Shown here one piece after another: positions 9,854 to 61,805 of a DNA stretch of 64,000 nucleotides. Location: the NCBI GenBank assembly GCA_017434045.1, contig JAFRGA010000081.1, positions 1,813 to 65,812 of the forward strand, written 5' to 3'. Position 1 is the first letter of the stretch, and every line of letters starts with the position of its first letter. The position numbers and the translations under genes were made by a program. Source of the stretch: Eggerthellaceae bacterium. GTDB lineage: Bacteria; Actinomycetota; Coriobacteriia; Coriobacteriales; Eggerthellaceae. The notes under the pieces are model-generated. The model worked only from the letters and a program-made list of their open reading frames with translations, was not told the origin of the DNA and made no database searches.

Positions 9854-11290
9854 CTATCCGATCGCCCCTTCCATCTCGAGTTTGATCAGGTTGTTCATCT
9901 CGACGGCATACTCCAGGGGCAGCTCCTTCGAGATGGGCTCGGCGAAGCCGTTGACGATCATCGTGCGCGCCTCCTCCTCGGAGACGCCGCGGGTCATGAG
10001 GTAGAAGATCTTGTCGTCGCCGATGCGCCCGATGGTGGCCTCATGGCCGATATCCACGTTCTTGCAGCGGATATCCATCGCGGGAATGGTGTCGGAACGG
10101 CTGCGGTCATCCAGCATGAGCGACTGGCACGACACCGAGCAGCGGGACCCCTCCGCCTTCGGCGTGGCGATGACCGAGCTGCGGAACGTCTGGATGCCGC
10201 CATCCTTCGAGATGCCCTTCGTCTCGACGCTTGCCGACGTCTCGGGTGCGGCGAGTACCACCTTGCAGCCGGTGTCGAGGTTCTGCCCACGGCCGGCGAA
10301 CGTGATGCCCGTGAAACTGGCCCGCGCCTTGCGTCCCGCCAGGATAGACATGGGGTACAGGTAGCCCACATGCGACCCGAACGAGCCCGAGATCCATTCG
10401 ATCTCGCCCTCCTCGTCGCAACGGCAGCGCTTCGTGTTCAGGTTGTACATGTTCTTCGACCAGTTCTCGATGGTCGAGTAGCGCAGGTGCGCGCGTTTGC
10501 CCACGAACAGCTCGACGGCGCCTGCATGCAAATTCGCAACGTTGTATTTCGGTGCGCTGCAGCCTTCGATGAAGTGCAGGCTGGCATCGTCCTCCACGAT
10601 GATGAGCGTGTGCTCGAACTGGCCTGCCCCCTTCGCATTCAGGCGGAAGTAGCTTTGCAGCGGGAAGTCGAGCTTCACGCCCTTGGGCACGTAAACGAAC
10701 GAACCGCCCGACCATATCGCGCCGTGAAGGGCGGCGAACTTGTGGTCGGTCGGCGGGATGAGCGTCATGAACTTGCTTTCGATGAGCTCCGCGTACTCAC
10801 CCTGGAGGGCCTCCTCGATGCCGGAGTAGACGATGCCCATCTCCGATGCCGTTTCCTGCATCGAGTGGTACACGAGCTCGGAGTCGTATTGGGCGCCGAC
10901 TCCCGCCAAGTAGGCGCGCTCGGCCTGCGGGATGCCCAATCGGTCGAAGGTGTCCTTGATGTTCTCGGGGACGCTCTCCCAATCGGATTGCTGCTCGGTT
11001 GGAGGCTTCACGTACGTCACGATGTTGTCCATATCGAGACCGGCGATGGACGGGCCCCAGTCGGACATCGTCATATCGTTGTAAACCTCGAGGGAATGCA
11101 GGCGATGCTCGAGCATCCACGCCGGTTCGTTCTTGCGTTCGGAGATCTCGCGCACGATATCGGGCGTGAGGCCCGCGTCGAGCTTCTCGGCGTCAGCGTC
11201 ATCGTAGCGGAAGTCGTACTTGACGCGATCGACGTCTGCAACCTGCGTGCGCCTTTTGCCCGATGCGGTGATGGTGACTTCGTTTCCCAT
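9854..11290 (-). CDS. sufB: Fe-S cluster assembly protein SufB
   Basis: It has highly conserved SufB sequence (EPAWMLEHRL, HFIEGCSAP, HEATIGRIGDDKIFYLMTRG). The start is taken at ATG 11290, just downstream of the sufC stop. Confidence 0.92.
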   Translation of the reverse strand: MGNEVTITASGKRRTQVADVDRVKYDFRYDDADAEKLDAGLTPDIVREISERKNEPAWMLEHRLHSLEVYNDMTMSDWGPSIAGLDMDNIVTYVKPPTEQQSDWESVPENIKDTFDRLGIPQAERAYLAGVGAQYDSELVYHSMQETASEMGIVYSGIEEALQGEYAELIESKFMTLIPPTDHKFAALHGAIWSGGSFVYVPKGVKLDFPLQSYFRLNAKGAGQFEHTLIIVEDDASLHFIEGCSAPKYNVANLHAGAVELFVGKRAHLRYSTIENWSKNMYNLNTKRCRCDEEGEIEWISGSFGSHVGYLYPMSILAGRKARASFTGITFAGRGQNLDTGCKVVLAAPETSASVETKGISKDGGIQTFRSSVIATPKAEGSRCSVSCQSLMLDDRSRSDTIPAMDIRCKNVDIGHEATIGRIGDDKIFYLMTRGVSEEEARTMIVNGFAEPISKELPLEYAVEMNNLIKLEMEGAIG

Positions 11291-11297
11291 GGCGCAC

Positions 11298-12056
11298 CTA
11301 CCGGGCATCGGCTACGAGCGACTCGTAGCGTTCGAACCCTTGCGCATCGATCTCGTCGATGAGCGAAGCCGGCCCTTCCGCCACCATATGCCCGTCTACC
11401 ATGACATGCGTGCGGTCCACGTGCAGCTGCTCGAGGATGCGCGTGTTGTGCGTGATGATGAGCAGCGTGCCGTCGCATTCCTTGCGATAGAGCTCCATGC
11501 CGCGCGACACGATCGAGAGCGCGTCGACATCGAGCCCCGAATCGGTTTCGTCCAAAATGGCAAGCTTGGGCTGCAGCAAGAGCAGCTGGAGCATCTCGAC
11601 CTTCTTCTTCTCGCCGCCGGAGAAGCCGACCCCGAGCTCACGGTCGAGATAGACCGTATCCATATCGAGCGCCTCGGCCAGCTCCTTCGTGCGGCGCTTG
11701 AATTCCTTGTTCTTCATCGCGATGTCGTGGGCGTCGACCATAGTGCGCAAGAAGCTGCGCAGGGGCACGCCGGGGATTTCGACCGGCGCCTGGAAGCTGA
11801 GGAACAAGCCTGTGCGGCTGCGCTTATCGGGCGAGAGCCCGGTGATGTCGTCGCCGTCGAAAAGAACGGTGCCGCTGGTCAGCTCGTAGGTGGGATCGCC
11901 CATCAGCACATGCCCGAGCGTTGATTTGCCGGCGCCGTTCGGGCCCATCAGCACGTGGACCTCGCCGGCGGCGACGTCGAGGTCAACGTCGTGGAGGATG
12001 GGCTTCTCGTCCACGGAGGCGGAAACATTGCGACAGGATAGAAGGGTGTGGGCCAT
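11298..12056 (-). CDS. sufC: Fe-S cluster assembly ATPase SufC
   Basis: It has Walker A GPNGAGKST, the signature FSGGEKKK and Walker B LAILDETDSGLD. Confidence 0.92.
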   Translation of the reverse strand: MAHTLLSCRNVSASVDEKPILHDVDLDVAAGEVHVLMGPNGAGKSTLGHVLMGDPTYELTSGTVLFDGDDITGLSPDKRSRTGLFLSFQAPVEIPGVPLRSFLRTMVDAHDIAMKNKEFKRRTKELAEALDMDTVYLDRELGVGFSGGEKKKVEMLQLLLLQPKLAILDETDSGLDVDALSIVSRGMELYRKECDGTLLIITHNTRILEQLHVDRTHVMVDGHMVAEGPASLIDEIDAQGFERYESLVADAR

Positions 12057-34916: not shown

Positions 34917-35016
34917 GGGGCGCGTTCCCCGAGTGCAAGGCGCGCCTCCCAGTGAAGGGCGTGCCCCCGGCGAAGGACGCGCCACCAGGCGAAAGGCGCG
35001 TCCCGCTCATTGAAAG
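34917..35016. repeat. five tandem ~19-22-bp degenerate repeats (GGCGCG-N-CCC-N-G-GAAG type)
   Basis: Read directly in the intergenic region between the M13 peptidase and the radical SAM gene. Confidence 0.7.
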
Positions 35017-35060
35017 TCTGCAACCTGGTGTGTCCAGGCATTCTGAGACTAGGAGGCACA

Positions 35061-35957
35061 ATGCATTACTCCGGCACGACCTTCCGCCCACCGTACGAGG
35101 CTAACTCGCTGCTGCTCCAAGTGACGAAGGGCTGCAGCCACAACAAGTGCGCCTTCTGCAGCATGTACCGCGACGTACCTTTCGAAGTGTCGCCCTTGCA
35201 CGAGGTCGAGGCCGATGTGGCCGAGGCGGCGTCGATGCGCCCGGGCGCGACGCGCGTCTTTCTGGAAAACGGCGATGCGTTCTGCCTGCCCGCCGAGCGC
35301 CTGCTCGAAATTGCGCGTATCATCAGGACGGGGCTTCCGCAGGTGAGGGAGATCACCGGCTACGCCCGCGTCCAGAACATCGCCACGAAGACCGACGAGG
35401 AGCTGCGCGCCCTTGCCCAGGCTGGCTTCACGGAGTGGAACATCGGGCTCGAGTCAGGCTTGGACGACGTGCTTTCCTTCATGAACAAGGGCTACGACGC
35501 CGCAACGGCACGCACGCAGCTGCTGCGCCTGGGTGATGCCGGGCTGCGCTTCAGCGTGAACATCATCAACGCGGCTGCGGGACCTGCGCGTATGGAGGAA
35601 CACGCCGCGGCAAACGCCCGCATCGTCAACGAGGTCAAGCCGTACCTGATCTTCGTCTCGCCCCTTCACGTGGATCCGGGCACGCCCCTCGAGGGCATGC
35701 TCGAGCGCGGCGAGTTCGTCGAGTCGACCATGGGCCAGTACATCGACGAGGAGGTTGCGTTCCTCGAGGCGCTCGATCTAGACGACTGCGTGTTCTTCGG
35801 TTCGCACATCAGCAACCCGGTGTCCGTGTTGGGCCGCCTGCCTCAGGACAAGCAGGCCCTGCTCGATGAGCTCGCGGAAGGAAAGGCCGAGTATCCGCAG
35901 GAAATGCTCGACGCGCATCCAAGAAAGGGCGCCGAGGGCATGATCATCGGCTGGTAG
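35061..35957 (+). CDS. radical SAM protein, function unknown
   Basis: It has the CX3CX2C motif CSHNKCAFC near the N-terminus. The ATG at 35061 follows AGGAGG. Confidence 0.8.
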   Translation: MHYSGTTFRPPYEANSLLLQVTKGCSHNKCAFCSMYRDVPFEVSPLHEVEADVAEAASMRPGATRVFLENGDAFCLPAERLLEIARIIRTGLPQVREITGYARVQNIATKTDEELRALAQAGFTEWNIGLESGLDDVLSFMNKGYDAATARTQLLRLGDAGLRFSVNIINAAAGPARMEEHAAANARIVNEVKPYLIFVSPLHVDPGTPLEGMLERGEFVESTMGQYIDEEVAFLEALDLDDCVFFGSHISNPVSVLGRLPQDKQALLDELAEGKAEYPQEMLDAHPRKGAEGMIIGW

Positions 35958-38358: not shown

Positions 38359-39378
38359 ATGATGAAGGTCCCTTCATACCCCGATTCTTTCGAGGTGCTC
38401 TGCTTGCAGGCGGCCGACGACGGGCGCGGAGACGTGCTCTTCGGCGAGAGTCTCGCCCGCGCGCGCAAGGTGGCGCGGCCTTTCATGATCGGCGAGGAGT
38501 TTCCCAGCGTTTACCTGGAGTTCCCGCTCATAGGCAAGCCGTTTCTCGACGTTACATTGCTCTACGGAAAGCTGAAGCCCGGCATGCGCGTCGAGTCGGA
38601 GGCGGCCGAGGGCACCGGGGAGATGATCGATTGGTTTGCGGGCGCTTGCTCGGATATCGGCGGCATTTGCTGCGGGTTCGAGCTCGACGTGAAGGACCCG
38701 GCGCTCCCTCGCGCGGCTGTCCATTTCCAACCGCGCGGAAGGCTGGAGCTGGTGGAGCCGTTCTGTGCGGCAATCGGCGAGCCGGAGCGCGCCAAGCTTT
38801 ACCTCGACATGGCGGCACGCATGCCGGATGAATGGCAGCTGTCGTTTTTCGGCCTGTTCAGAGGGCGGCCAGGATCGCCCTTGCGCGTCTGCGGCTACCT
38901 CGGAGAAGTGAAGCAAGCATGCGTGGAAGATCCGGCCTACCTCGCCGGCGTGTTCGACCAGATCGGTTTCAAGGCTTACGACGACGTGATGCTTGCGCAA
39001 GTGCGGGAAATCATGGCAACTGCCTCCGGCGCAATCGATTTCCAGTTCGACGTGTATGACGACGGGCATCTCGGCGACACGTTCGCCCTCGACATCCAGT
39101 TCGGCATCGAGCAGCCCGCCGCCGTGTTCGCGTCCTTCACGGACGGCCCCGCCGCGCGAGCGATGGGAAAGCTTGAGGAGCTGGGTGCGGCCGACGGACG
39201 CTGGAAGCTCGGCGGAGACGCTGCGTTCGCACGCTCGATGAATGTGGAGCTCGAGGACGGGAGCACAGGCCGCTATGCGTTCACGCTCATGCCCCAGTGG
39301 GTGAAGGCGCGCTGGACCGCAGGAGCCCTGCAGCCCTCGAAGCTCTATCATTTCGCCAACGCCTGCCTGTTAGAATAA
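38359..39378 (+). CDS. hypothetical 339-aa protein, first gene of the RiPP operon; five evenly spaced strand-turn-strand segments (possible ABBA/PT-barrel-like fold)
   Basis: The ATG follows AAAGGA. No catalytic motif was recognised. Repeated beta-hairpin-like segments are listed in the findings. Confidence 0.65.
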   Translation: MMKVPSYPDSFEVLCLQAADDGRGDVLFGESLARARKVARPFMIGEEFPSVYLEFPLIGKPFLDVTLLYGKLKPGMRVESEAAEGTGEMIDWFAGACSDIGGICCGFELDVKDPALPRAAVHFQPRGRLELVEPFCAAIGEPERAKLYLDMAARMPDEWQLSFFGLFRGRPGSPLRVCGYLGEVKQACVEDPAYLAGVFDQIGFKAYDDVMLAQVREIMATASGAIDFQFDVYDDGHLGDTFALDIQFGIEQPAAVFASFTDGPAARAMGKLEELGAADGRWKLGGDAAFARSMNVELEDGSTGRYAFTLMPQWVKARWTAGALQPSKLYHFANACLLE

Positions 39379-39380
39379 TT

Positions 39381-39440
39381 GCAACAACAGCAACAACCGC
39401 AGCAGCTGCAACAACCGCAGCAGCTGCAACAACCGCAACT
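39381..39440. repeat. 18-bp tandem repeat, ~3.3 units (two perfect copies of GCAGCAGCTGCAACAACC at 39399-39416 and 39417-39434)
   Basis: Read directly. It lies between the stop of the 339-aa gene and the rSAM start. Confidence 0.9.
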
Positions 39441-39499
39441 CGAGAGGCAATTCATGCGAACGCGGCCCCGTGGCGATGACCAAACGAAAGGGACAGAAG

Positions 39500-40894
39500 A
39501 TGACTGCAGAAGAGAGCAAGACGACTGAGCGGGCTGAATCCAGAACCGCCGGCGAGGCGGGCTGGCATGTCTCGCGCTACAACCTCTGCGCGAAGGTGCC
39601 CGACACGAAGATGGTCGCAATCGCCAACCTGTTCAAGGGCAACTGCGCCGAGTACACCCCCATCGAAATGTACCTGCTGAGCGTGCTGGAAGAGCTCGAC
39701 GAGAACCATCCCGTCATCGAGCGCTTCGCCAAGCGAGGCATCATCTGCAAATTCGACGAGCTGGCGGCCCTCGACACGATAGGCCGGGCCGGCTGCGGGG
39801 TTGCAGGCGGAGTCGGCCTCACCATCTGCCCGACGATGGGCTGCAATTTCGATTGCCCCTACTGCTTCGAAGACCATGGCCGCGGGAAGATGAGCCCCGA
39901 GGTGCAGGACGATATCGTGGCGCTCGCCGAGCGCATGCTCGAGACAAGCGGATCCAAGAACCTGTCCGTGACATGGTTCGGCGGCGAGCCGCTACTTGCG
40001 CCTAACGTCATCGACTCGCTTTCAAAGAGGCTTATGGCCCTTGTCGAAGAACGCGGCGGGGAGTATTCGGCGGGCATTATCACGAACGGGTACTTGTTCA
40101 CTCAAGAGATCGTCGACATGCTGGAACGCAACAAAGTCAACAGCTGCCAAGTGACTATCGACGGGCTCGGCGCCACTCACGACGCAACGCGCCGGCTCGC
40201 CAACGGCGGGCCCACTTTCGAGCGCATCACGGGCAACCTGCGCAATCTCAAGCTTCCGTTCAACGTGCACATCCGCCATAACGTGCATGAGGGGAATATG
40301 GCCGAGATAGACGAGCTCAAGGCATTCATCGAGAAGCTGGCGGAAGAATCGGGCAACGACCTCATGTACTACCCTGCACCGGTAACCGGCAGCCAGACCG
40401 CCGACGAGCGCGGCGAGCAGGTCGGGCTTCTGTGCGGCGCGGATGCGAGCGATGTGGGGATACGTCAAGAGGCAAGGCGGTTCCATGTCGGCCGCGGCAC
40501 CTATTGCGGGGCGCATCACCTCTGGGCCGTTGGCATAGATGACCAGGGGCGGCTCCAGAAATGCTGGGAAGCCGTCGACAAGCCGGACATCTCCTTCGGC
40601 ACCGCGCACGATTGGGACCCCAAGAACCCCCTCGAGACCGCGTCGAACCCCGACAACCTCACCATGTACCTGAACACGGCCTCGCCCGTGCCCGACGAGG
40701 AATGCCGTGAGTGCATATGGCTGCCCATGTGCGTGGGCGGCTGCCCCCATAAGCGCCTGTTCGGGGGGAGGCAATGCGTTGCGTTCAAGGACGAGCCCGA
40801 GAAGTACGTGCTTGCGCTGCATGCCCGCATCGGCGAGGACAAGGAGTCCGAAGAGCCCGAGGAGCCTGAGGGGTCCGAAGGGTCCGAGGCGTAG
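39500..40894 (+). CDS. radical SAM/SPASM-domain peptide maturase
   Basis: It has the SAM cluster motif CNFDCPYC and the C-terminal SPASM Cys motif CRECIWLPMCVGGCPHKR, plus additional Cys (YCGAHH, KCWE). The ATG at 39500 lies 6 nt after GAAAGGGA. Alternative starts are at 39470 and 39476. Confidence 0.88.
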   Translation: MTAEESKTTERAESRTAGEAGWHVSRYNLCAKVPDTKMVAIANLFKGNCAEYTPIEMYLLSVLEELDENHPVIERFAKRGIICKFDELAALDTIGRAGCGVAGGVGLTICPTMGCNFDCPYCFEDHGRGKMSPEVQDDIVALAERMLETSGSKNLSVTWFGGEPLLAPNVIDSLSKRLMALVEERGGEYSAGIITNGYLFTQEIVDMLERNKVNSCQVTIDGLGATHDATRRLANGGPTFERITGNLRNLKLPFNVHIRHNVHEGNMAEIDELKAFIEKLAEESGNDLMYYPAPVTGSQTADERGEQVGLLCGADASDVGIRQEARRFHVGRGTYCGAHHLWAVGIDDQGRLQKCWEAVDKPDISFGTAHDWDPKNPLETASNPDNLTMYLNTASPVPDEECRECIWLPMCVGGCPHKRLFGGRQCVAFKDEPEKYVLALHARIGEDKESEEPEEPEGSEGSEA

Positions 40895-41058
40895 CTGCCC
40901 CTTCGTTCGAGAGCGGCTTTTGCCAGAAATTTCCCCTTCCTGCAATTTGAGCGGAAGATGCTCGAAGTCATGCCTGTTCGTTGTATGATGGCAGGTAGCG
41001 TGCGAACAGGCAATTTGCGTGCACTCGCGGATACGCGAGGATTTCGAGAGGAACAACG

Positions 41059-41568
41059 ATGGCAGACGCCTCTAGCTCGATATTCAACAAGAAGGCCACG
41101 GAGAAGCTACGCAGCCCCGATGACCTCGACAAGTACGTACGCGTGACAAACCCAAGCGTGTGGGTGGTGCTCGCCGCATGCCTTTGCCTGATCTTCGCCC
41201 TGCTTGCTTGGGGCTTCTTCGGGGCCGTGACCACCAACGTCGCGAAAACCGGCGTGGCGATTGACGGGAAGGTGATGTGCTTCTTGTCGTCCGACGAAAT
41301 CGCCGGGGTCGACCCGGGCGATATCGGCAATGTGAGCGGGGAGCGCATGCATGTCGCAGAAGTCTCCGCCGTCCCGGTTTCACCTGGTGAAGCGAAAAAG
41401 ATCTTGAAGGACGACTACCTGGTGAGCGCGCTTGTGAGCGGCGATTGGGCGTATGTCGTCACGTTCGAGGGCGACACGTCGGAGCTTTCCGAGGGCGTCC
41501 CGCTCAAAGTCAACATCACGACGAGCCGCGTATCGCCCATTTCGCTGATACTGAGGAACTGGGGCTAG
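41059..41568 (+). CDS. NHLM-type bacteriocin system secretion protein (short HlyD-like, single TM)
   Basis: The N-terminus (FNKKATEKLRSPDDLDKYVRVTNPSVWVVLAACLCLIFALLAWGFFG) matches the conserved start of this family. The gene sits immediately upstream of the paired ABC exporters. Confidence 0.72.
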   Translation: MADASSSIFNKKATEKLRSPDDLDKYVRVTNPSVWVVLAACLCLIFALLAWGFFGAVTTNVAKTGVAIDGKVMCFLSSDEIAGVDPGDIGNVSGERMHVAEVSAVPVSPGEAKKILKDDYLVSALVSGDWAYVVTFEGDTSELSEGVPLKVNITTSRVSPISLILRNWG

Positions 41569-41571
41569 TGG

Positions 41572-43731
41572 ATGGGCAAGGTCGCTAAGGTCCCACAAGT
41601 CATGCAGATGGAGGCGCTCGAATGCGGCGCCGCCTGCCTGACGATGATCCTGGCTTACTACGGGCGGTGGGTGCCGCTCGAGAAGGTGCGGGCCGACTGC
41701 GGTGTGTCGCGCGATGGCTCGAAGGCGTCCAACGTGCTCAAGGCCGCGCGCAGCTACGGGCTGGCCGCCAAGGGCATGACGTATTCCGCCTCGGCCATAC
41801 GCAGGAAGGGCAAGTTCCCCTGCATCATTTTCTGGAACTTCAACCACTTCGTGGTGCTCGCCGGGTTCAAGGGCAAAAACGCCGTGATCAACGATCCCGC
41901 CCGCGGCGAGATCAAAGTGCCCATGAAGGAGTTCGAGGAAAGCTTCACGGGCGTCGCCCTCACGTTCGAGAAGACCGACGCCTTCGAAGAGGGCGGAACC
42001 AAGCCCAGCACGATAAAGTATGCGAAGAAGCGCCTCGAAGGGTTGGGGGCGGCTATCGCGTTCGTCATGCTGACGGCTGCCATCACCTCGTTCGTGACGG
42101 TGATCGACACCTCGATGGGCCAGGTGTTCCTCGACCAGATTCTCAGCGGCAACAACCGTGACTGGCTTATGCCGCTCTTAGGCCTCATGGTTGTGCTCGC
42201 GTCCATCATCGGGCTCGTCTCGGTGCTCAACGCCGTGTACCTCGTGCGCATCCAGGGCAAGATCGCGGTGGTGAGCTCGTCGCGCTTCATGCGCCACCTG
42301 CTCCACTTGCCGGTGGAGTTCTATTCGCAGCGCATGGTAGGCGACCTGCAGCAGCGCCAATCGGCGAACGAGACCATCGCCTTCGCGCTCGTGGGCCAGC
42401 TCGCGCCAATCCTCATTAACGGGGTCATGCTGATCATCTACCTCGTGATCATGGTGCAGTACAGCTTGCTGCTCACGGTCGTAGGCCTGTTCACGGTGGT
42501 CATAAACGCCCTGCTCGCGCGCTACATCTCGAAGAAGCGCGTGAACATCTCGCGCTCTGCGACGGCAACTGCCGGCAAGCTCTACGCCACCACCGTGAGC
42601 GGCATCGAGATGATCGAGACCATCAAGGCTTCCGGCGCCGAGGTCGGCTACTTCGGACGCTGGGCCGGCTACCAGGCGTCGGTGAACGAGTCCACCGCAC
42701 GCACGACGCTGTTGAACGAGTACCTCGGCGCCGTGCCGGCCGCCCTCACGCAGCTCACCAACGTTATCGTGCTCGTGCTGGGCATCTGGCTGATCGTCGA
42801 GGGCAGGTTCACCCCTGGTGCACTGCTCGTGTTCACGGGCTTCCTCGCTTCGTTCATGATGCCGGTCACGCAGATCATCAACCTGGGGCAGACCGTCCAG
42901 GAGATGCAGACGCAGATGGAGCGCGTGGAAGACGTCATGCGCTACGAGGTGGACGTTCCGGAGGAGCCGGAGGACACGCAGGGCGTGCGGACTTCTGCGG
43001 GGCGCGAGAAACTGTACGGGCAAGTTGACCTGGAAGGCGTGACCTTCGGCTACTCGCCGTTGGAGCCGCCGCTCATCAAGGACTTCAACCTGCACCTGGA
43101 GCCGGGTAGCTGGGTCGCGCTCGTGGGCAGCTCGGGCTGCGGGAAATCCACCATCGCGAAGCTGGTCTCGGGGCTCTACAAGCCTTGGGAAGGCGAGGTC
43201 CGCTTCGACGACACGCCCTTGAGCGAGATACCGCGGCCGATTTTGCGCGGGTCGCTGGCCGTCGTGGACCAGGACATCATCACGTTCGACGACTCGGTTT
43301 CCGACAACGTGAAGCTGTGGGACCGCTCGGTCGAGGACTTCGAAGTCATCCTGGCCTGCCGCGATGCGGAAATCAGCGATATCATCAACGAGCGCGAGGG
43401 CGGTTACTCGAGCCGTATCCTGCCTGGCGGGCGCAACTACTCGGGCGGGCAGCTGCAGCGCCTCGAGATCGCACGCGCGCTTGCGCAGGACCCCACGATC
43501 ATCATTTTGGACGAGGCCACGAGCGCGCTCGACGCGCAGACTGAGGACGCGGTCATTCGCCGCATCCGCGACAGGGGTATCACCTGCATAGTGGTGGCGC
43601 ACCGCCTTTCGACCATCCGCGACTGCGACGAGATCATCGTGCTCGAGGATGGCCAGGTGGTCGAGCGCGGCACGCACGACGAGCTGATTGCCGCCGACGG
43701 CGCTTACGCAGACCTTGTGAGGAACGACTAG
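41572..43731 (+). CDS. bacteriocin export ABC transporter with N-terminal C39 peptidase domain (peptidase/permease/ATPase)
   Basis: It has the C39 catalytic Cys context QMEALECGAACLTMILAYYG, six TM segments, Walker A GSSGCGKST and the signature YSGGQLQR. Confidence 0.92.
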   Translation: MGKVAKVPQVMQMEALECGAACLTMILAYYGRWVPLEKVRADCGVSRDGSKASNVLKAARSYGLAAKGMTYSASAIRRKGKFPCIIFWNFNHFVVLAGFKGKNAVINDPARGEIKVPMKEFEESFTGVALTFEKTDAFEEGGTKPSTIKYAKKRLEGLGAAIAFVMLTAAITSFVTVIDTSMGQVFLDQILSGNNRDWLMPLLGLMVVLASIIGLVSVLNAVYLVRIQGKIAVVSSSRFMRHLLHLPVEFYSQRMVGDLQQRQSANETIAFALVGQLAPILINGVMLIIYLVIMVQYSLLLTVVGLFTVVINALLARYISKKRVNISRSATATAGKLYATTVSGIEMIETIKASGAEVGYFGRWAGYQASVNESTARTTLLNEYLGAVPAALTQLTNVIVLVLGIWLIVEGRFTPGALLVFTGFLASFMMPVTQIINLGQTVQEMQTQMERVEDVMRYEVDVPEEPEDTQGVRTSAGREKLYGQVDLEGVTFGYSPLEPPLIKDFNLHLEPGSWVALVGSSGCGKSTIAKLVSGLYKPWEGEVRFDDTPLSEIPRPILRGSLAVVDQDIITFDDSVSDNVKLWDRSVEDFEVILACRDAEISDIINEREGGYSSRILPGGRNYSGGQLQRLEIARALAQDPTIIILDEATSALDAQTEDAVIRRIRDRGITCIVVAHRLSTIRDCDEIIVLEDGQVVERGTHDELIAADGAYADLVRND

Positions 43732-43732
43732 C

Positions 43733-45916
43733 ATGAGTTGGATGGAATCGCAAATAGACGAGCGCGCGCGGCTAGACTCCGCGATGATCGAGCGTGCGTA
43801 CGCGGAGCTTGCATCCAGCGTCATCAACTCCAACAGCGCTCCGCAGATCGGGTTGGACGACATCGAGCAGAACGACGGCGCCGTGAAGGCCTGCCTGAAG
43901 TTCATCCGGGTGGAGCCCGGGGAGGTGCCCGAGGGCATCACGGACAAGAACGAGCGCATCGACTGGCTCTGCCGGCCCTCGGGGACGATGCACCGTATAG
44001 TTCAGCTCGACGAGGGATGGTACAAGCGCGCGTTCGGCGCCCTGCTCGGCCATCTCGACACCGGCGATGCGGTGGCCCTCTTGCCCCGTGGCATGGGCGG
44101 TTACTACTTCCTGGAGCCGGGAAGCGGTCGGAAGGTGAGGGTGGACGAGAAAGTGGCGTCGCACATAGCCTCCGATGCCGTGTTCTTCTACAAGCCCTTG
44201 CCCGCGCGTCCGCTCAAGGTCCGGGACCTGGCCTTATTCATCCACGGCGCCTTCGAGAAAACCGATTACCTGCTCGTGATCGCGGCGGCGCTCGCCGTCA
44301 CGCTCATCGGGCTGTTCCCCGCGTGGGCGAACGAGATCGCGTTCGGTATCGTGGCGCCCTCCAAGCAGGCCAGCCTCATCGCGCCGATTGGCGCGCTGCT
44401 CGCAGGCGTGGCGATTTCGACCGCCCTCATCAGCGCGTGCCGCAATATCGTGATGGCGCGTGTGTCCATGAAGCTCGACGTCACGTGCGAGGCGGCTGCC
44501 TTTGCGCGCGTCCTCTCGCTTCCCACGTCGGTGTTCAAGCAGTATGCGGCGGGCGATTTGGCCAACCGCGTGGCGAACATCACGCTGCTTTCGCGGACGC
44601 TCACCTCGATCTCGCTGGGGTCGGGGTTGACCTCGCTCTTCTCGCTTGTGTACATCATCCAGATCGGCTGCTATGCGCCGCCTCTGGCGGTTCCCGCATT
44701 TGTGATCATCGCCGTGGAGGCCGCGCTGACCATCGTCGTCACGAACCTCACGGCGCGTTACGCGAAAGCCACGATGGAGGCTTCCGCGAAGCTCTCCGGT
44801 ACGGTCACCGCGCTTCTGAACGGCATCCAGAAGATCAAGCTCGCCGGCGCGGAGGAGCGCGCTTTCGCGAAGTGGGCGCACGGTTATGCGCCGTACGCGC
44901 GCGCCACCTACAACAGGCCTATTATCGTCCGCGCCCTGCCGGCGTTCGTGACGCTCGTAAGCCTGTTCGGTACCATCGTCATCTACTACTTTGCCGGAAC
45001 AGCCCAGATCTCCGTCGCGAACTACATGGCCTTCAACGTCGCGTTCGGCCAGGCGACGGCCGCCATCATGGCGCTTTCCCAAGTTGCAAGCGAAGCGGCC
45101 GAGATCAGGCCCATGATCGAGCTGGCCGCGCCCATCTTGGAAGCCGAGCCCGAGATCGCCGAGGACAAGCCGAGCGTCGAGGACCTGACGGGCTCCATCG
45201 AGGTCACGGGCCTCACGTTCCGCTACAGCGAGAACAGCCCCTACATCGTGAAGGACCTCTCGTTCACCGTGCGTCCTGGCGAGTACGTGGCGCTCGTGGG
45301 CAAGAGCGGTTGCGGCAAGTCCACCATCATGCGCCTACTGCTTGGGTTTGAGCAGCCCGAACGAGGCACCGTGTTCTATGGACAGTATGACGTGAGCAAG
45401 GTTGACCTTCGGTCGCTGCGGCAGCGCATCGGCGTGGTCATGCAGGACGGCAAGCTGTTCATGGGCGACATCGCGTCCAACATCACCATCTCGACGCCGA
45501 CGGCCACCCTCGACGATGCATGGGCAGCTGCCGAGCTGGCAGGCATTGCGGACGACATCCGCAAGATGCCCATGGGCATGCAGACGCTCGTGACGGAAGG
45601 TTCGGGCGGCATCTCCGGCGGGCAGAGGCAGCGTATCATGATTGCCCGCGCCATCTGCGGGAATCGCAAGATCTTGATGTTCGACGAGGCCACGAGCGCG
45701 CTCGACAACAAGACGCAGAAGCATGTGTCCGATTCGCTCGACTCGCTGGATTGCACGCGCGTCGTGGTGGCCCACCGGCTCTCCACCGTGCGCCATTGCG
45801 ACCGCATCCTGGTCGTGGACGGCGGGCGCATCGCCGAGGAAGGCACCTACGACGAGCTCATTGCCATGGATGGCCTGTTCGCCGAGCTCGTTGCTCGCCA
45901 GCGGCTGGATACGTAG
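43733..45916 (+). CDS. partner bacteriocin export ABC transporter permease/ATPase (no peptidase Cys; N-terminal accessory domain)
   Basis: It has Walker A GKSGCGKST and the signature ISGGQRQR. The start is 1 nt after the upstream stop. The N-terminal ~150 aa lack the C39 Cys. Confidence 0.9.
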   Translation: MSWMESQIDERARLDSAMIERAYAELASSVINSNSAPQIGLDDIEQNDGAVKACLKFIRVEPGEVPEGITDKNERIDWLCRPSGTMHRIVQLDEGWYKRAFGALLGHLDTGDAVALLPRGMGGYYFLEPGSGRKVRVDEKVASHIASDAVFFYKPLPARPLKVRDLALFIHGAFEKTDYLLVIAAALAVTLIGLFPAWANEIAFGIVAPSKQASLIAPIGALLAGVAISTALISACRNIVMARVSMKLDVTCEAAAFARVLSLPTSVFKQYAAGDLANRVANITLLSRTLTSISLGSGLTSLFSLVYIIQIGCYAPPLAVPAFVIIAVEAALTIVVTNLTARYAKATMEASAKLSGTVTALLNGIQKIKLAGAEERAFAKWAHGYAPYARATYNRPIIVRALPAFVTLVSLFGTIVIYYFAGTAQISVANYMAFNVAFGQATAAIMALSQVASEAAEIRPMIELAAPILEAEPEIAEDKPSVEDLTGSIEVTGLTFRYSENSPYIVKDLSFTVRPGEYVALVGKSGCGKSTIMRLLLGFEQPERGTVFYGQYDVSKVDLRSLRQRIGVVMQDGKLFMGDIASNITISTPTATLDDAWAAAELAGIADDIRKMPMGMQTLVTEGSGGISGGQRQRIMIARAICGNRKILMFDEATSALDNKTQKHVSDSLDSLDCTRVVVAHRLSTVRHCDRILVVDGGRIAEEGTYDELIAMDGLFAELVARQRLDT

Positions 45917-45934
45917 GGACGTACTTGAGTTTTC

Positions 45935-46504
45935 CTATCGGCTGCTTGCCAAGTGGGACATCGTCATCGTGAACACGATGGGCGCCCAAGCGGCGTACTT
46001 GCGTGGCTCGGCCTGGAGCTCTGCGGCAAGCGTTTCGAAATCAATCCAGCGGACTTCGCTCGCCTCGGCGGGGTCGGGGTCTATCGTTCCTTCGCAGCGG
46101 CCGACGATCACGTGGTCGTATTCGTATTCGCACAGCCCGTTGTCGAACTCGGCGCGGTAGACGAACGCGCAGATCTCGTGCAGATCAATCGCCTCGCACC
46201 TGAGCTCTTCGTGCACACGCCGATAGGCGGCCTCTATGGTCTCCTCGCCCAGGCGCGGGTGGGAGCAGCACGAGTTGGCCCAAAGCCCGCCCGAGTGGTA
46301 TTTCATCATCGAGCGCAACGCGAGCAGCAGCTCCGGCCCGTTCTCCCCTTCGCGTACGAGCACGACCGAGAACGCGCGGTGGAGGAGCCCTTCCACGTGC
46401 GCCTGCAGTTTCGTGGCGGCGCCGGTTTCGCGGTCGAGTCCATCGACGAGAATCAACATGTCATCGCGAGCGGGATCAGCCGCCATTTTCTCGTCAAGTT
46501 CCAT
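45935..46504 (-). CDS. idi: isopentenyl-diphosphate delta-isomerase, type 1 (Nudix fold)
   Basis: Its motifs align with those of E. coli Idi: LHRAFSV, KYHSGGLWANSCCSHPRLGE and CEYEYDHV. GGAGG RBS. Confidence 0.85.
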   Translation of the reverse strand: MELDEKMAADPARDDMLILVDGLDRETGAATKLQAHVEGLLHRAFSVVLVREGENGPELLLALRSMMKYHSGGLWANSCCSHPRLGEETIEAAYRRVHEELRCEAIDLHEICAFVYRAEFDNGLCEYEYDHVIVGRCEGTIDPDPAEASEVRWIDFETLAAELQAEPRKYAAWAPIVFTMTMSHLASSR

Positions 46505-46586
46505 GATTACCTCCGGTTTTAACCGCGCAAGGCGGTGCGTTTTGCTGTGCGAACGATGCTAGTTACTGTTGGAGAGGGGAGCCAGG

Positions 46587-46781
46587 CTACTTTAGACTGA
46601 GGCAAGGAAGATAGTCTTCACAAAAGCCTTTACACCAGCCACCTCCACCGCCCGATACGGCCTCCAGCTCAGCGTCGGAGAGGCTGTATCCCTCCTCCTT
46701 GGCGAGTGTCAGGATGTCTTTCGACGTCTTGCAGGCTTTCACTTTCTCTTGCAGTTCAGGTGAGAGGTCCTCGAAGTTCAT
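46587..46781 (-). CDS. Nif11-like leader peptide RiPP precursor (64 aa), core GGGWCKGFCEDYLPCLSLK
   Basis: The protein reads MNFEDLSPELQEKVKACKTSKDILTLAKEEGYSLSDAELEAVSGG|GGGWCKGFCEDYLPCLSLK. The ATG at 46781 follows GGAGG. It has a double-Gly cleavage motif and a 3-Cys core. Confidence 0.8.
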   Translation of the reverse strand: MNFEDLSPELQEKVKACKTSKDILTLAKEEGYSLSDAELEAVSGGGGGWCKGFCEDYLPCLSLK

Positions 46782-61499: not shown

Positions 61500-61805
61500 T
61501 TACCAGCCGTTGTCCACCATTTTCTCCAGTATTTTCTTTGCTTCGTATTCTCTTCGCAAGTCAAACACGTATGACGTATACACTAACCTGTCTTCTACTC
61601 CAATCTCCCTTGCATATTTTTGGGCGCCTTCCAGATCGTCGTAATCAAACGTGCCCAGGACATCGCCGGTTTCATCGTCGATGACTTCAAATTTGTAGGT
61701 GCCATGATACAGGTGGACGACGCCGCCGCTGACGCTGCTCAGCTCTTCGTCGCTTAACGGTGTTATATTCGGATCTTCCTGTCCTTTATTCACGTGAATT
61801 GCCAT
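61500..61805 (-). CDS. 101-aa protein with N-terminal double-glycine leader-like peptide (LSDEELSSVSGG)
   Basis: The protein reads MAIHVNKGQEDPNITPLSDEELSSVSGG|VVHLYHGTYKFEV.... AAGGGGG RBS. The leader motif closely matches that of the precursor at 46587-46781. Confidence 0.65.
   Translation of the reverse strand: MAIHVNKGQEDPNITPLSDEELSSVSGGVVHLYHGTYKFEVIDDETGDVLGTFDYDDLEGAQKYAREIGVEDRLVYTSYVFDLRREYEAKKILEKMVDNGW

Follow-up and report, generated by a model that had tools for sequence, protein, structure and literature searches.

Prenylation alters the interaction of peptides with membranes as well as their activity, hence the demand for lipidated peptides that are made by the ribosome and then modified post-translationally (RiPPs). 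The peptide prenyltransferases (PTs) listed in a 2026 review comprise the eukaryotic CaaX enzymes, the cyanobactin F-family, the trans-isoprenyl diphosphate synthase-like enzymes (ComQ, PalQ and ChrPC) and NctPC (PMC13290415), none of these classes being paired with a radical S-adenosylmethionine (SAM) maturase and none coming from Coriobacteriia. MppC from Moorena producens, a PT with the α-β-β-α (ABBA) fold, carries out the leader-dependent geranylation of Trp at C5 in a class II lanthipeptide with a Nif11 leader, via an L-x4-L motif (PMC12715784, 2025). Here, we describe a locus at positions 38359-46781 of a 64,000-nucleotide stretch of DNA from an Eggerthellaceae bacterium, a gut or rumen actinobacterium (contig JAFRGA010000081.1 of assembly GCA_017434045.1; hereafter the window), in which the gene for a 339-residue protein with an ABBA fold (38359-39378, plus strand) is found together with those for a Nif11-type precursor peptide, a radical SAM (rSAM)/SPASM enzyme, an NHLM-type export trio and a type-1 isopentenyl-diphosphate Δ-isomerase (idi).

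We propose that this locus is a biosynthetic gene cluster (BGC) for a small, cross-linked and lipidated RiPP that is prenylated on Trp, a reading to which, taken as a full chain, we give a probability of roughly 0.6. More narrowly, the 339-residue protein is very probably a prenyltransferase acting on Nif11 peptides. An initial annotation made from the sequence alone had delineated the same seven genes, all of which were recovered as open reading frames (ORFs) at those coordinates, and had left the 339-residue protein as an unknown. It had also not recognized the combination as a characterized pathway; neither this PT family nor the combination of a PT with an rSAM enzyme, Nif11/NHLM genes and idi was found described in the full-text literature searched, in which the coverage of subscription journals is limited and an earlier account is possible.

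At the sequence level, the 339-residue protein has no match in Pfam, in NCBIfam or among the sequences of the PDB, either as a single sequence or in two profile searches of the PDB, and 44 diverse members of its family matched no prenyltransferase family in Pfam, Trp_DMAT included, at E ≤ 1. It does not belong to the curated PT sequence families (Trp_DMAT, PTase_Orf2 and the cyanobactin PTs), being related to them at the level of the fold and forming a sequence family of its own. Because the sequence-level searches gave nothing, its annotation rests on fold comparison. An AlphaFold2 (AF2) model calculated from an alignment of 38 homologues, with a mean predicted local distance difference test score (pLDDT) of 95.3 and a predicted template-modelling score (pTM) of 0.92, displays helix pairs alternating with strand pairs in repeated α-β-β-α elements, the architecture of an ABBA barrel, which in this superfamily is made of about ten antiparallel β-strands. 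When this model was compared with the PDB using Foldseek, ranks 1-47 were all occupied by ABBA aromatic prenyltransferases, most of them with a probability of 1.00. The best match was a 5-dimethylallyltryptophan synthase (5-DMATS; PDB entry 6zs0, E = 1.3e-6, TM-score 0.56), and the bacterial Trp DMATS enzymes as a group rank first (6zs0, 6zrz, IptA, PriB and CymD; E from 1e-6 to 1e-4, TM-score ≤ 0.57), followed by CloQ, FamD1, fungal DMATS-type enzymes and the peptide PTs PirF (E = 1e-3) and KgpF (E = 0.03). The protein, an unknown in the initial annotation, thus remains without a sequence match, whereas its fold is that of an ABBA prenyltransferase.

The family to which this protein belongs is large: its members fall into 523 clusters at 90% identity, and at 50% identity they are covered by 358 representatives. 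Its genomic neighbourhood was analysed in a sample of 80 PT loci obtained from a genome scan, to the retrieved sequence of which the counts given below refer (individual loci are designated by L and a number). Nearly all of these loci are from metagenome-assembled genomes (MAGs) of rumen or gut Coriobacteriia and a few are from Clostridia; two belong to strains in culture, namely Olsenella intestinalis KCTC 25379 and Lachnospiraceae bacterium AC2029. Neighbouring genes were called by a codon-usage score, which under-performs on the low-GC loci of Clostridia; calling by the longest ORF was unsuitable owing to the long antisense ORFs typical of high-GC DNA. Clustering of the ORFs across the loci recovered Nif11-leader peptides in 23 loci, NHLM-type ATP-binding cassette (ABC) transporters in 19, orthologous rSAM enzymes in 17 and a short HlyD protein in 11, while every other neighbour family was confined to seven loci or fewer. 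By direct count, Nif11 genes are present in 30 of the 80 loci, the rSAM gene in 16, the ABC pair in 13 and idi in three, with at least one of these partners in 48. Co-occurrence of all seven genes in relatives, considered in the initial annotation, was not observed in any single 20 kb locus of the 80; it is the parts that recur, in a modular fashion. The contig to which L030 and L088 belong holds PTs, four Nif11 genes, both ABC transporter genes, an rSAM gene and idi, the short HlyD not being detected there. In a different phylum, the locus of Lachnospiraceae bacterium AC2029 (L062) holds a PT paralogue, a PT, an rSAM enzyme, a Nif11 precursor, a second rSAM enzyme, ABC2, ABC1 and HlyD.

This genomic company bears on whether the substrate is a peptide at all. 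The closest folds are those of DMATS enzymes acting on free Trp and of the small-molecule PTs CloQ and FamD1, and for 32 of the 80 PT loci the sequence retrieved contains no RiPP gene, as would be expected were the 339-residue protein to prenylate free tryptophan, indole or a quinone-type aromatic compound and its product to be unrelated to the peptide. Nif11 ORFs are, however, concentrated close to PT genes (24 of 55 lie within 500 nt), the adjacent cores carry a conserved Trp and no other small-molecule biosynthetic family recurs beside the PT, which renders a small-molecule substrate very unlikely.

Across family members sharing 21-51% identity, Glu54, Asp64, Asp110, Arg170, Asp279, Arg281 and Tyr330 are invariant and Arg176, Gln229, Lys316 and Lys328 are nearly so. 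With the exception of Asp279 and Arg281, these residues fall in or beside predicted strands with an i/i+2 spacing, a pattern that in the model would match the expectation for a barrel interior that binds the diphosphate and the acceptor; in ABBA prenyltransferases, the prenyl diphosphate is held by basic and Tyr side chains that line the barrel, and an acidic residue serves to position or deprotonate the acceptor. The invariance of charged and Tyr residues on the strands of the barrel, down to 21% identity, speaks against a non-catalytic PT barrel that would serve as a scaffold for the leader, as a chaperone or in immunity. Such a role would be in keeping with the lack of sequence similarity to active PT families and with the divergent tandem paralogues present in 31 of the 80 loci, one of each pair possibly being non-catalytic, but it would leave the recurrent link to idi without an explanation, since this link makes sense only if a prenyl diphosphate is consumed. 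We consider a non-catalytic barrel to be most improbable.

The 31 loci with at least two PT copies include L014, L015, L017, L021, L022, L039, L041, L042, L048, L055-L057, L060, L072, L073, L075 and L076. Where both members of a pair were called at full length, they are divergent paralogues, mostly in tandem and with 25-31% identity to the enzyme of the window, which is present as a single copy. The tandem arrangement suggests either prenylation at two sites or a heteromeric enzyme. A simple rule relating the number of PT genes to that of Trp residues in the core was considered and found to be unsupported, as L071 and L078 combine WW cores with one PT.

The putative substrate is encoded on the minus strand by a gene for a peptide of 64 residues (46587-46781), the ATG codon of which is preceded by a ribosome-binding site (RBS), GGAGG, located 6 nt upstream. 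Its identification as a Nif11-like leader peptide was confirmed by scores of 32.7 bits for TIGR03798 (cut-off 32.3) and 38.3 bits for Pfam Nif11 (cut-off 23.8). The Nif11-type leader (residues 1-45; 46647-46781) contains the L-x4-L motif and ends in a Gly-Gly cleavage motif (LSDAELEAVSGG), and the core (residues 46-64, GGGWCKGFCEDYLPCLSLK; 46587-46646 with the stop codon) displays Trp49, Cys50, Cys54 and Cys60, the three Cys residues lying in WCKGFCEDYLPC. Related leaders share the motif L-x4-L-x2-h-[SAVT]-GG in 53 of 54 distinct cases. The short cores that follow them span 10-33 residues and have a high content of both Cys (10.8%) and Trp (7.7%). A Trp no more than six residues from the GG site is present in 25 of 30 such cores, an arrangement expected for about 7.5% of cores (binomial p of about 1e-23); at least two Cys residues are present in 21 of the 30. 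The W-C motif is retained in loci that hold a PT and a precursor but lack the rSAM gene (DSFWCPTATSCPNYEVMR and SWYNCMNETW), and where an early Trp is missing, as it is in a few cores, Tyr or Phe takes its place.

The DMATS-like fold and the early Trp of the core motif point to Trp49 as the acceptor, and we predict that the prenyl group is placed on this residue while Cys50, Cys54 and Cys60 serve as cross-link donors. The cluster could also operate as proposed with the prenyl group directed to the thiol of a neighbouring Cys, to Tyr or Phe, or to the new N-terminus. The Cys beside the Trp is itself conserved (W-x0-3-C in 23 of 30 cores), a few PT-adjacent cores without an early Trp, such as AYIYCEVKQCESF and YGTSVLSCFFAMYC, keep Tyr or Phe together with Cys, and the acceptors of the known ABBA peptide PTs are Ser, Thr, His, Arg, Tyr, Trp and the ends of peptides (PMC12715784, PMC13290415). 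On the other hand, indole (Trp) prenyltransferases head the list of structural matches and Trp is extremely enriched where the core begins; with regard to Cys in particular, its characterized prenylation is the work of Zn-dependent CaaX-type enzymes, which have a different fold (PMC13290415). An acceptor other than Trp is an unlikely alternative.

The rSAM/SPASM enzyme (39500-40894, plus strand) contains both the CNFDCPYC motif and CRECIWLPMCVGGCPHKR, the two features by which it had been recognized, and scores above the cut-offs of Radical_SAM (64.8 bits; cut-off 29.5) and of the SPASM profile TIGR04085 (42.2 bits; cut-off 27). The ATG at 39500 is the likelier start codon, since it is preceded by a GGGA-type RBS, whereas the GTG at 39470 is not. 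The best full-length relatives of the enzyme are RiPP maturase families (TIGR04463, Clo7bot, CefB and PapB), all below their equivalog cut-offs; no equivalog cut-off in NCBIfam is reached (TIGR04463, 202 versus 525 bits; PapB, 113 versus 340; SCIFF, 65 versus 425). CteB (PDB entry 5wgg; E = 3e-9) is the closest solved structure. In an alignment of 31 orthologues, the invariant Cys residues are Cys115, Cys119 and Cys122 of the CxxxCxxC motif and, in the C-terminal half of the protein, Cys312, Cys336, Cys355, Cys402, Cys405, Cys411, Cys415 and Cys426. These eight leave room for two auxiliary clusters, so that the enzyme possesses both the CxxxCxxC motif and the auxiliary-cluster Cys residues of the SPASM domain that characterize sactipeptide and ranthipeptide maturases. 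About 100 residues at its N-terminus might, as first suggested, constitute a domain that recognizes the leader. Its AF2 model is poor (pLDDT 51.6), the alignment being shallow (72-78% identity). At the 3' end of the gene (40842-40889), a 9 nt repeat encodes an acidic low-complexity tail, ESEEPEEPEGSEGSEA, which is not conserved in the orthologues.

In 16 of the 80 loci, from both Coriobacteriia and Clostridia and in several gene orders, an rSAM orthologue is found close to the PT, mostly with no gene between them. Constant linkage of the two is nevertheless refuted by four orthologues on long contigs (L081-L084; rSAM gene at 10001-11400 in each, 73-78% identity), none of which has a PT, a Nif11 gene or an exporter within 10 kb. 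Small ORFs beside these four solitary rSAM genes were considered as precursors and rejected. In L081, two tandem rSAM paralogues adjoin nonribosomal peptide synthetase genes. The higher conservation of the rSAM enzyme relative to the PT hints at a dispersed system or at an additional role for this enzyme.

The solitary orthologues are also what would be expected if the rSAM enzyme and the PT belonged to separate, merely adjacent pathways, with the PT alone acting on the Nif11 peptide and the rSAM enzyme elsewhere, or the reverse. Many loci with a PT and a Nif11 gene lack the rSAM gene (L066, L067, L071 and L073 are examples), and conservation is higher in the rSAM enzyme (at least 72% identity among 30 aligned homologues) than in the PT (61-86%). 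The recurrence of the PT-rSAM association in two classes of bacteria and in varied gene orders is difficult to accommodate in this explanation, as are the Nif11 ORFs with W/C-rich cores that lie directly beside the rSAM gene in L030/L088, L062 and L068, and we regard separate pathways as unlikely.

The product of idi (45935-46504, minus strand), a gene already identified in the initial annotation, is a Nudix-type isomerase that scores 148.5 bits against NF002995 (cut-off 127). In L020, L033 and L058 an orthologue lies beside PT or Nif11 genes, and of four long-contig contexts retrieved with idi as the seed, two are PT/Nif11 loci: L086, with the order ECF (extracytoplasmic function) sigma factor-HlyD-ABC1-ABC2-...-idi-DUF7005-Nif11-PT, and L088, which extends L030. 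The idi of the cluster appears to be a dedicated copy, because one genome has a second idi elsewhere (L087). The earlier view of idi as a hint of prenyl modification is strengthened by the prenyltransferase fold of the 339-residue protein and by the closeness of its family to Nif11 precursors.

The export trio consists of two ABC transporters and a short HlyD protein. ABC1 (719 residues; 41572-43731, plus strand) is a C39-peptidase exporter of the NHLP/Nif11 bacteriocin family, scoring 937.6 bits against TIGR03796 (cut-off 853.3) and 120.8 bits against Peptidase_C39. ABC2 (727 residues; 43733-45916, plus strand), the partner permease/ATPase, lacks the C39 domain and has TIGR03797 as by far its best match, its score of 702.0 bits lying marginally below the cut-off of 709.4. 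The HlyD-family secretion protein (169 residues; 41059-41568, plus strand) matches positions 1-60 of the 421 positions of TIGR03794 with 49.7 bits, against a cut-off of 156; it has an NHLM-like N-terminus, as first noted, and is not a full-length protein of about 420 residues. This short form is conserved: related proteins of 167-194 residues are encoded in 11-13 loci, and in each case the ABC1 gene follows immediately downstream. Searches against NCBIfam and Pfam thus bear out each of the family assignments made initially.

On this basis, the following pathway may be proposed. The precursor would be bound through its Nif11 leader, upon which both modifications could depend, and the rSAM/SPASM enzyme would cross-link the three-Cys core, Cys-derived thioethers being probable by analogy with its nearest relatives. 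The ABBA PT would then place a prenyl group, probably a C5 unit from dimethylallyl diphosphate (DMAPP), on Trp49 just after the GG motif, the type-1 isomerase of the cluster raising the supply of DMAPP. Finally, the C39 domain of ABC1 would cut after GG and the mature peptide, a putative bacteriocin or signal, would be exported with the participation of ABC2 and the short HlyD protein.

Several points weigh against this pathway or parts of it. The TM-scores to known PTs are only moderate (0.40-0.57), the family has no detectable sequence similarity to any known PT family, and prenyl transfer, its acceptor and its donor are deduced from the fold and the genomic context. In the core motif, Cys and Trp are conserved to the same degree, which makes S-prenylation a possibility, and the rSAM enzyme, which reaches no equivalog cut-off, may have a different chemistry. 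Considering its four solitary orthologues, the rSAM enzyme and the PT may share a peptide substrate only in some cases or never. No partner gene is present in the retrieved sequence of 32 of the 80 PT loci, idi lies near the PT in only a few, and PT, rSAM enzyme, exporter, precursor and idi are modular rather than strictly syntenic.

A more far-reaching proposal is that this PT family of hundreds of clusters, with its frequent divergent tandem paralogues, has diversified among anaerobes of the rumen and gut and makes Trp-prenylated, ComX-like intercellular signals of 10-25 residues rather than bacteriocins, and that the rSAM enzyme forms an unprecedented link on the conserved W-x-C motif, for example a tryptathionine-like Trp-Cys bond or a Trp-centred cyclophane, rather than a sactionine or ranthionine; this is speculative and, in our judgement, unlikely to hold in full.

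The five genes on the plus strand are separated, from the PT to ABC2, by 121, 164, 3 and 1 nt. The minus-strand pair converges on this series, the stop codons of ABC2 and idi lying 18 nt apart, and idi begins 82 nt downstream of the precursor gene on the same strand. Most of the spacer between the PT and rSAM genes is filled by a perfect CAG/CAA-rich 18 nt tandem repeat (GCAACAACCGCAGCAGCT, 2.7 copies; 39381-39439), which could be a slippage-prone or regulatory element. A short hairpin of high GC content, located in the interval that separates the precursor gene from idi (46522-46536, minus strand), a match that does not exceed the shuffled-sequence background, could weakly suggest a partial terminator or attenuator. 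Promoter-like and terminator-like matches in the locus occur only at background level, and no Rfam family is found within it. The boundaries first proposed for the cluster hold, since the flanking genes (an HhH-GPD glycosylase, an AI-2E transporter, an α/β-hydrolase and an aldo-keto reductase) are unrelated. Beyond the glycosylase and the AI-2E transporter, 2.4 kb upstream, a separate rSAM protein of 315 residues without a SPASM domain is encoded at 35010-35957 (plus strand); it is probably unrelated to the cluster, as none of the 80 related PT loci yielded a homologue. The Coriobacteriia-type host suggested at first agrees with the names of MBQ6391460.1 and MBQ6391465.1, which belong to the 90% identity clusters of the 339-residue protein and of the isomerase and are both designated 'MAG: Eggerthellaceae bacterium'; the 90%-cluster relative of the 339-residue protein is labelled 'hypothetical protein' at NCBI.

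A second ORF with a double-glycine leader, of 101 residues, is located at 61500-61805 on the minus strand, its leader ending in LSDEELSSVSGG and being followed by VVHLYHGTYKFEVIDD; a C-terminal domain of about 70 residues has no Pfam match. Relatives in which GG is followed by [FY][IL]YH[DQ] occur in PT loci L027, L033 and L049, and the product may be a further cargo of the same C39 exporter.

Other genes accompany the PT in relatives. A DUF7005 protein (about 295 residues, PF22541) is encoded directly beside the PT in L012, L023, L027, L033, L041, L044, L045 and L086 (8569-9462 in the last), with the order idi-DUF7005-Nif11-PT in L033 and L086, and could contribute to the system as an additional tailoring or accessory protein. 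An ECF sigma factor accompanied by a small protein of 81 residues, as well as a STAS and SpoIIE/HATPase partner-switching module, adjoin the export trio or idi in relatives, such regulatory genes being found in L003, L007, L010, L015, L039, L041, L085 and L086. Directly after the short precursor SWY[ND]CMNETW, a protein of about 400 residues without a Pfam match is encoded in L059, L070, L072 and L076 (5757-6956 in the last), which belong to a PT subfamily with 41% identity. The window encodes no DUF7005 protein, ECF sigma factor, STAS or SpoIIE/HATPase protein and no counterpart of the unannotated 400-residue protein.

The system of MppC, MppE and MppM is one of the closest described counterparts of the locus of the window. 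In both, a soluble ABBA PT is encoded with a Nif11-type precursor, the leader contains the L-x4-L motif, the acceptor (here predicted) is a Trp in a short core, and macrocyclization precedes or accompanies prenylation, as would also be the case in the pathway proposed here. The macrocyclase of the window is, however, a radical SAM/SPASM enzyme, in contrast to the LanM of the MppC system; anaerobic Coriobacteriia and Clostridia from the gut and rumen serve as hosts here, rather than cyanobacteria, and the cluster of the window includes idi. MppC and the PT of the window, which falls into no Pfam family, were compared by description, not by sequence, and the fold of the latter is closer to that of the bacterial DMATS than to those of the cyanobactin-type PTs.

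With the NHLP/Nif11 peptides and their NHLM export system (TIGR03794, TIGR03796, TIGR03797 and TIGR03798; Haft, Basu and Mitchell, 2010), the locus shares the leader family, the GG motif, a C39-peptidase ABC transporter with a peptidase-less partner and an HlyD-family protein. It departs from that system in the short, 169-residue form of HlyD and in its maturases, an rSAM/SPASM enzyme and an ABBA PT in place of LanM or cyclodehydratase types.

The thioether-forming sactipeptide and ranthipeptide systems (CteB/SCIFF and PapB) and the uncharacterized families TIGR04463, Clo7bot and CefB resemble the locus in the radical SAM core, the full set of SPASM Cys residues and the short Cys-rich core of the peptide, whereas the rSAM enzyme of the window reaches none of the equivalog cut-offs (202 versus 525 bits at best). 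To our knowledge, and in the literature searched, no member of these families is known to pair with a prenyltransferase.

The bacterial Trp DMATS (5-DMATS of S. coelicolor, IptA, PriB and CymD) are the best structural matches of the 339-residue protein, with which they are likely to share an indole acceptor and DMAPP as the donor. In contrast, they accept free Trp or other small compounds as substrates, their Pfam family is Trp_DMAT and their genes do not lie beside those of precursor peptides.

Like the predicted product of the window, those of ComX/ComQ, PalQ and the cyanobactin F-family (PagF, KgpF, PirF and LimF) are short ribosomal peptides with a prenylated residue, which is Trp for ComX, PalQ and KgpF. 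PalQ prefers Gly before the terminal Trp (PMC13290415), a preference that resembles the GG-W junction of window-type cores. ComQ and PalQ have an isoprenoid-synthase fold, unlike the ABBA fold of the PT described here, and no ComQ-like gene is present in the locus, which sets it apart from ComX-type systems, in which ComQ goes together with a ComP/ComA sensor pair. The cyanobactin PTs are weaker fold matches, are leader-independent and act after PatA/PatG proteolysis and macrocyclization; no gene for a PatA/PatG-type subtilisin protease occurs at 35-49.4 kb of the window, so that the locus is not of the cyanobactin type.

ABBA prenylation of a Nif11-leader RiPP already has a published precedent in MppC (PMC12715784); what is new is the placement of a previously unknown gene in an unannotated and abundant PT family that is tied to Trp/Cys-rich Nif11 peptides. 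If the proposed reading is correct, dozens of natural precursor-enzyme pairs would become available for engineering the Trp-selective lipidation of peptides, a profile built from the alignment of the PT family would provide a new genome-mining handle for BGCs, and Lachnospiraceae bacterium AC2029 and Olsenella intestinalis KCTC 25379 would be the cultured strains in which to look for the product. Set against the described systems, the locus would then be the first in which radical-SAM cross-linking is combined with prenylation, and its prenyltransferase would represent a fifth, sequence-distinct family of peptide PTs, one that is abundant in the microbiome of rumen and gut but now labelled only 'hypothetical protein'.

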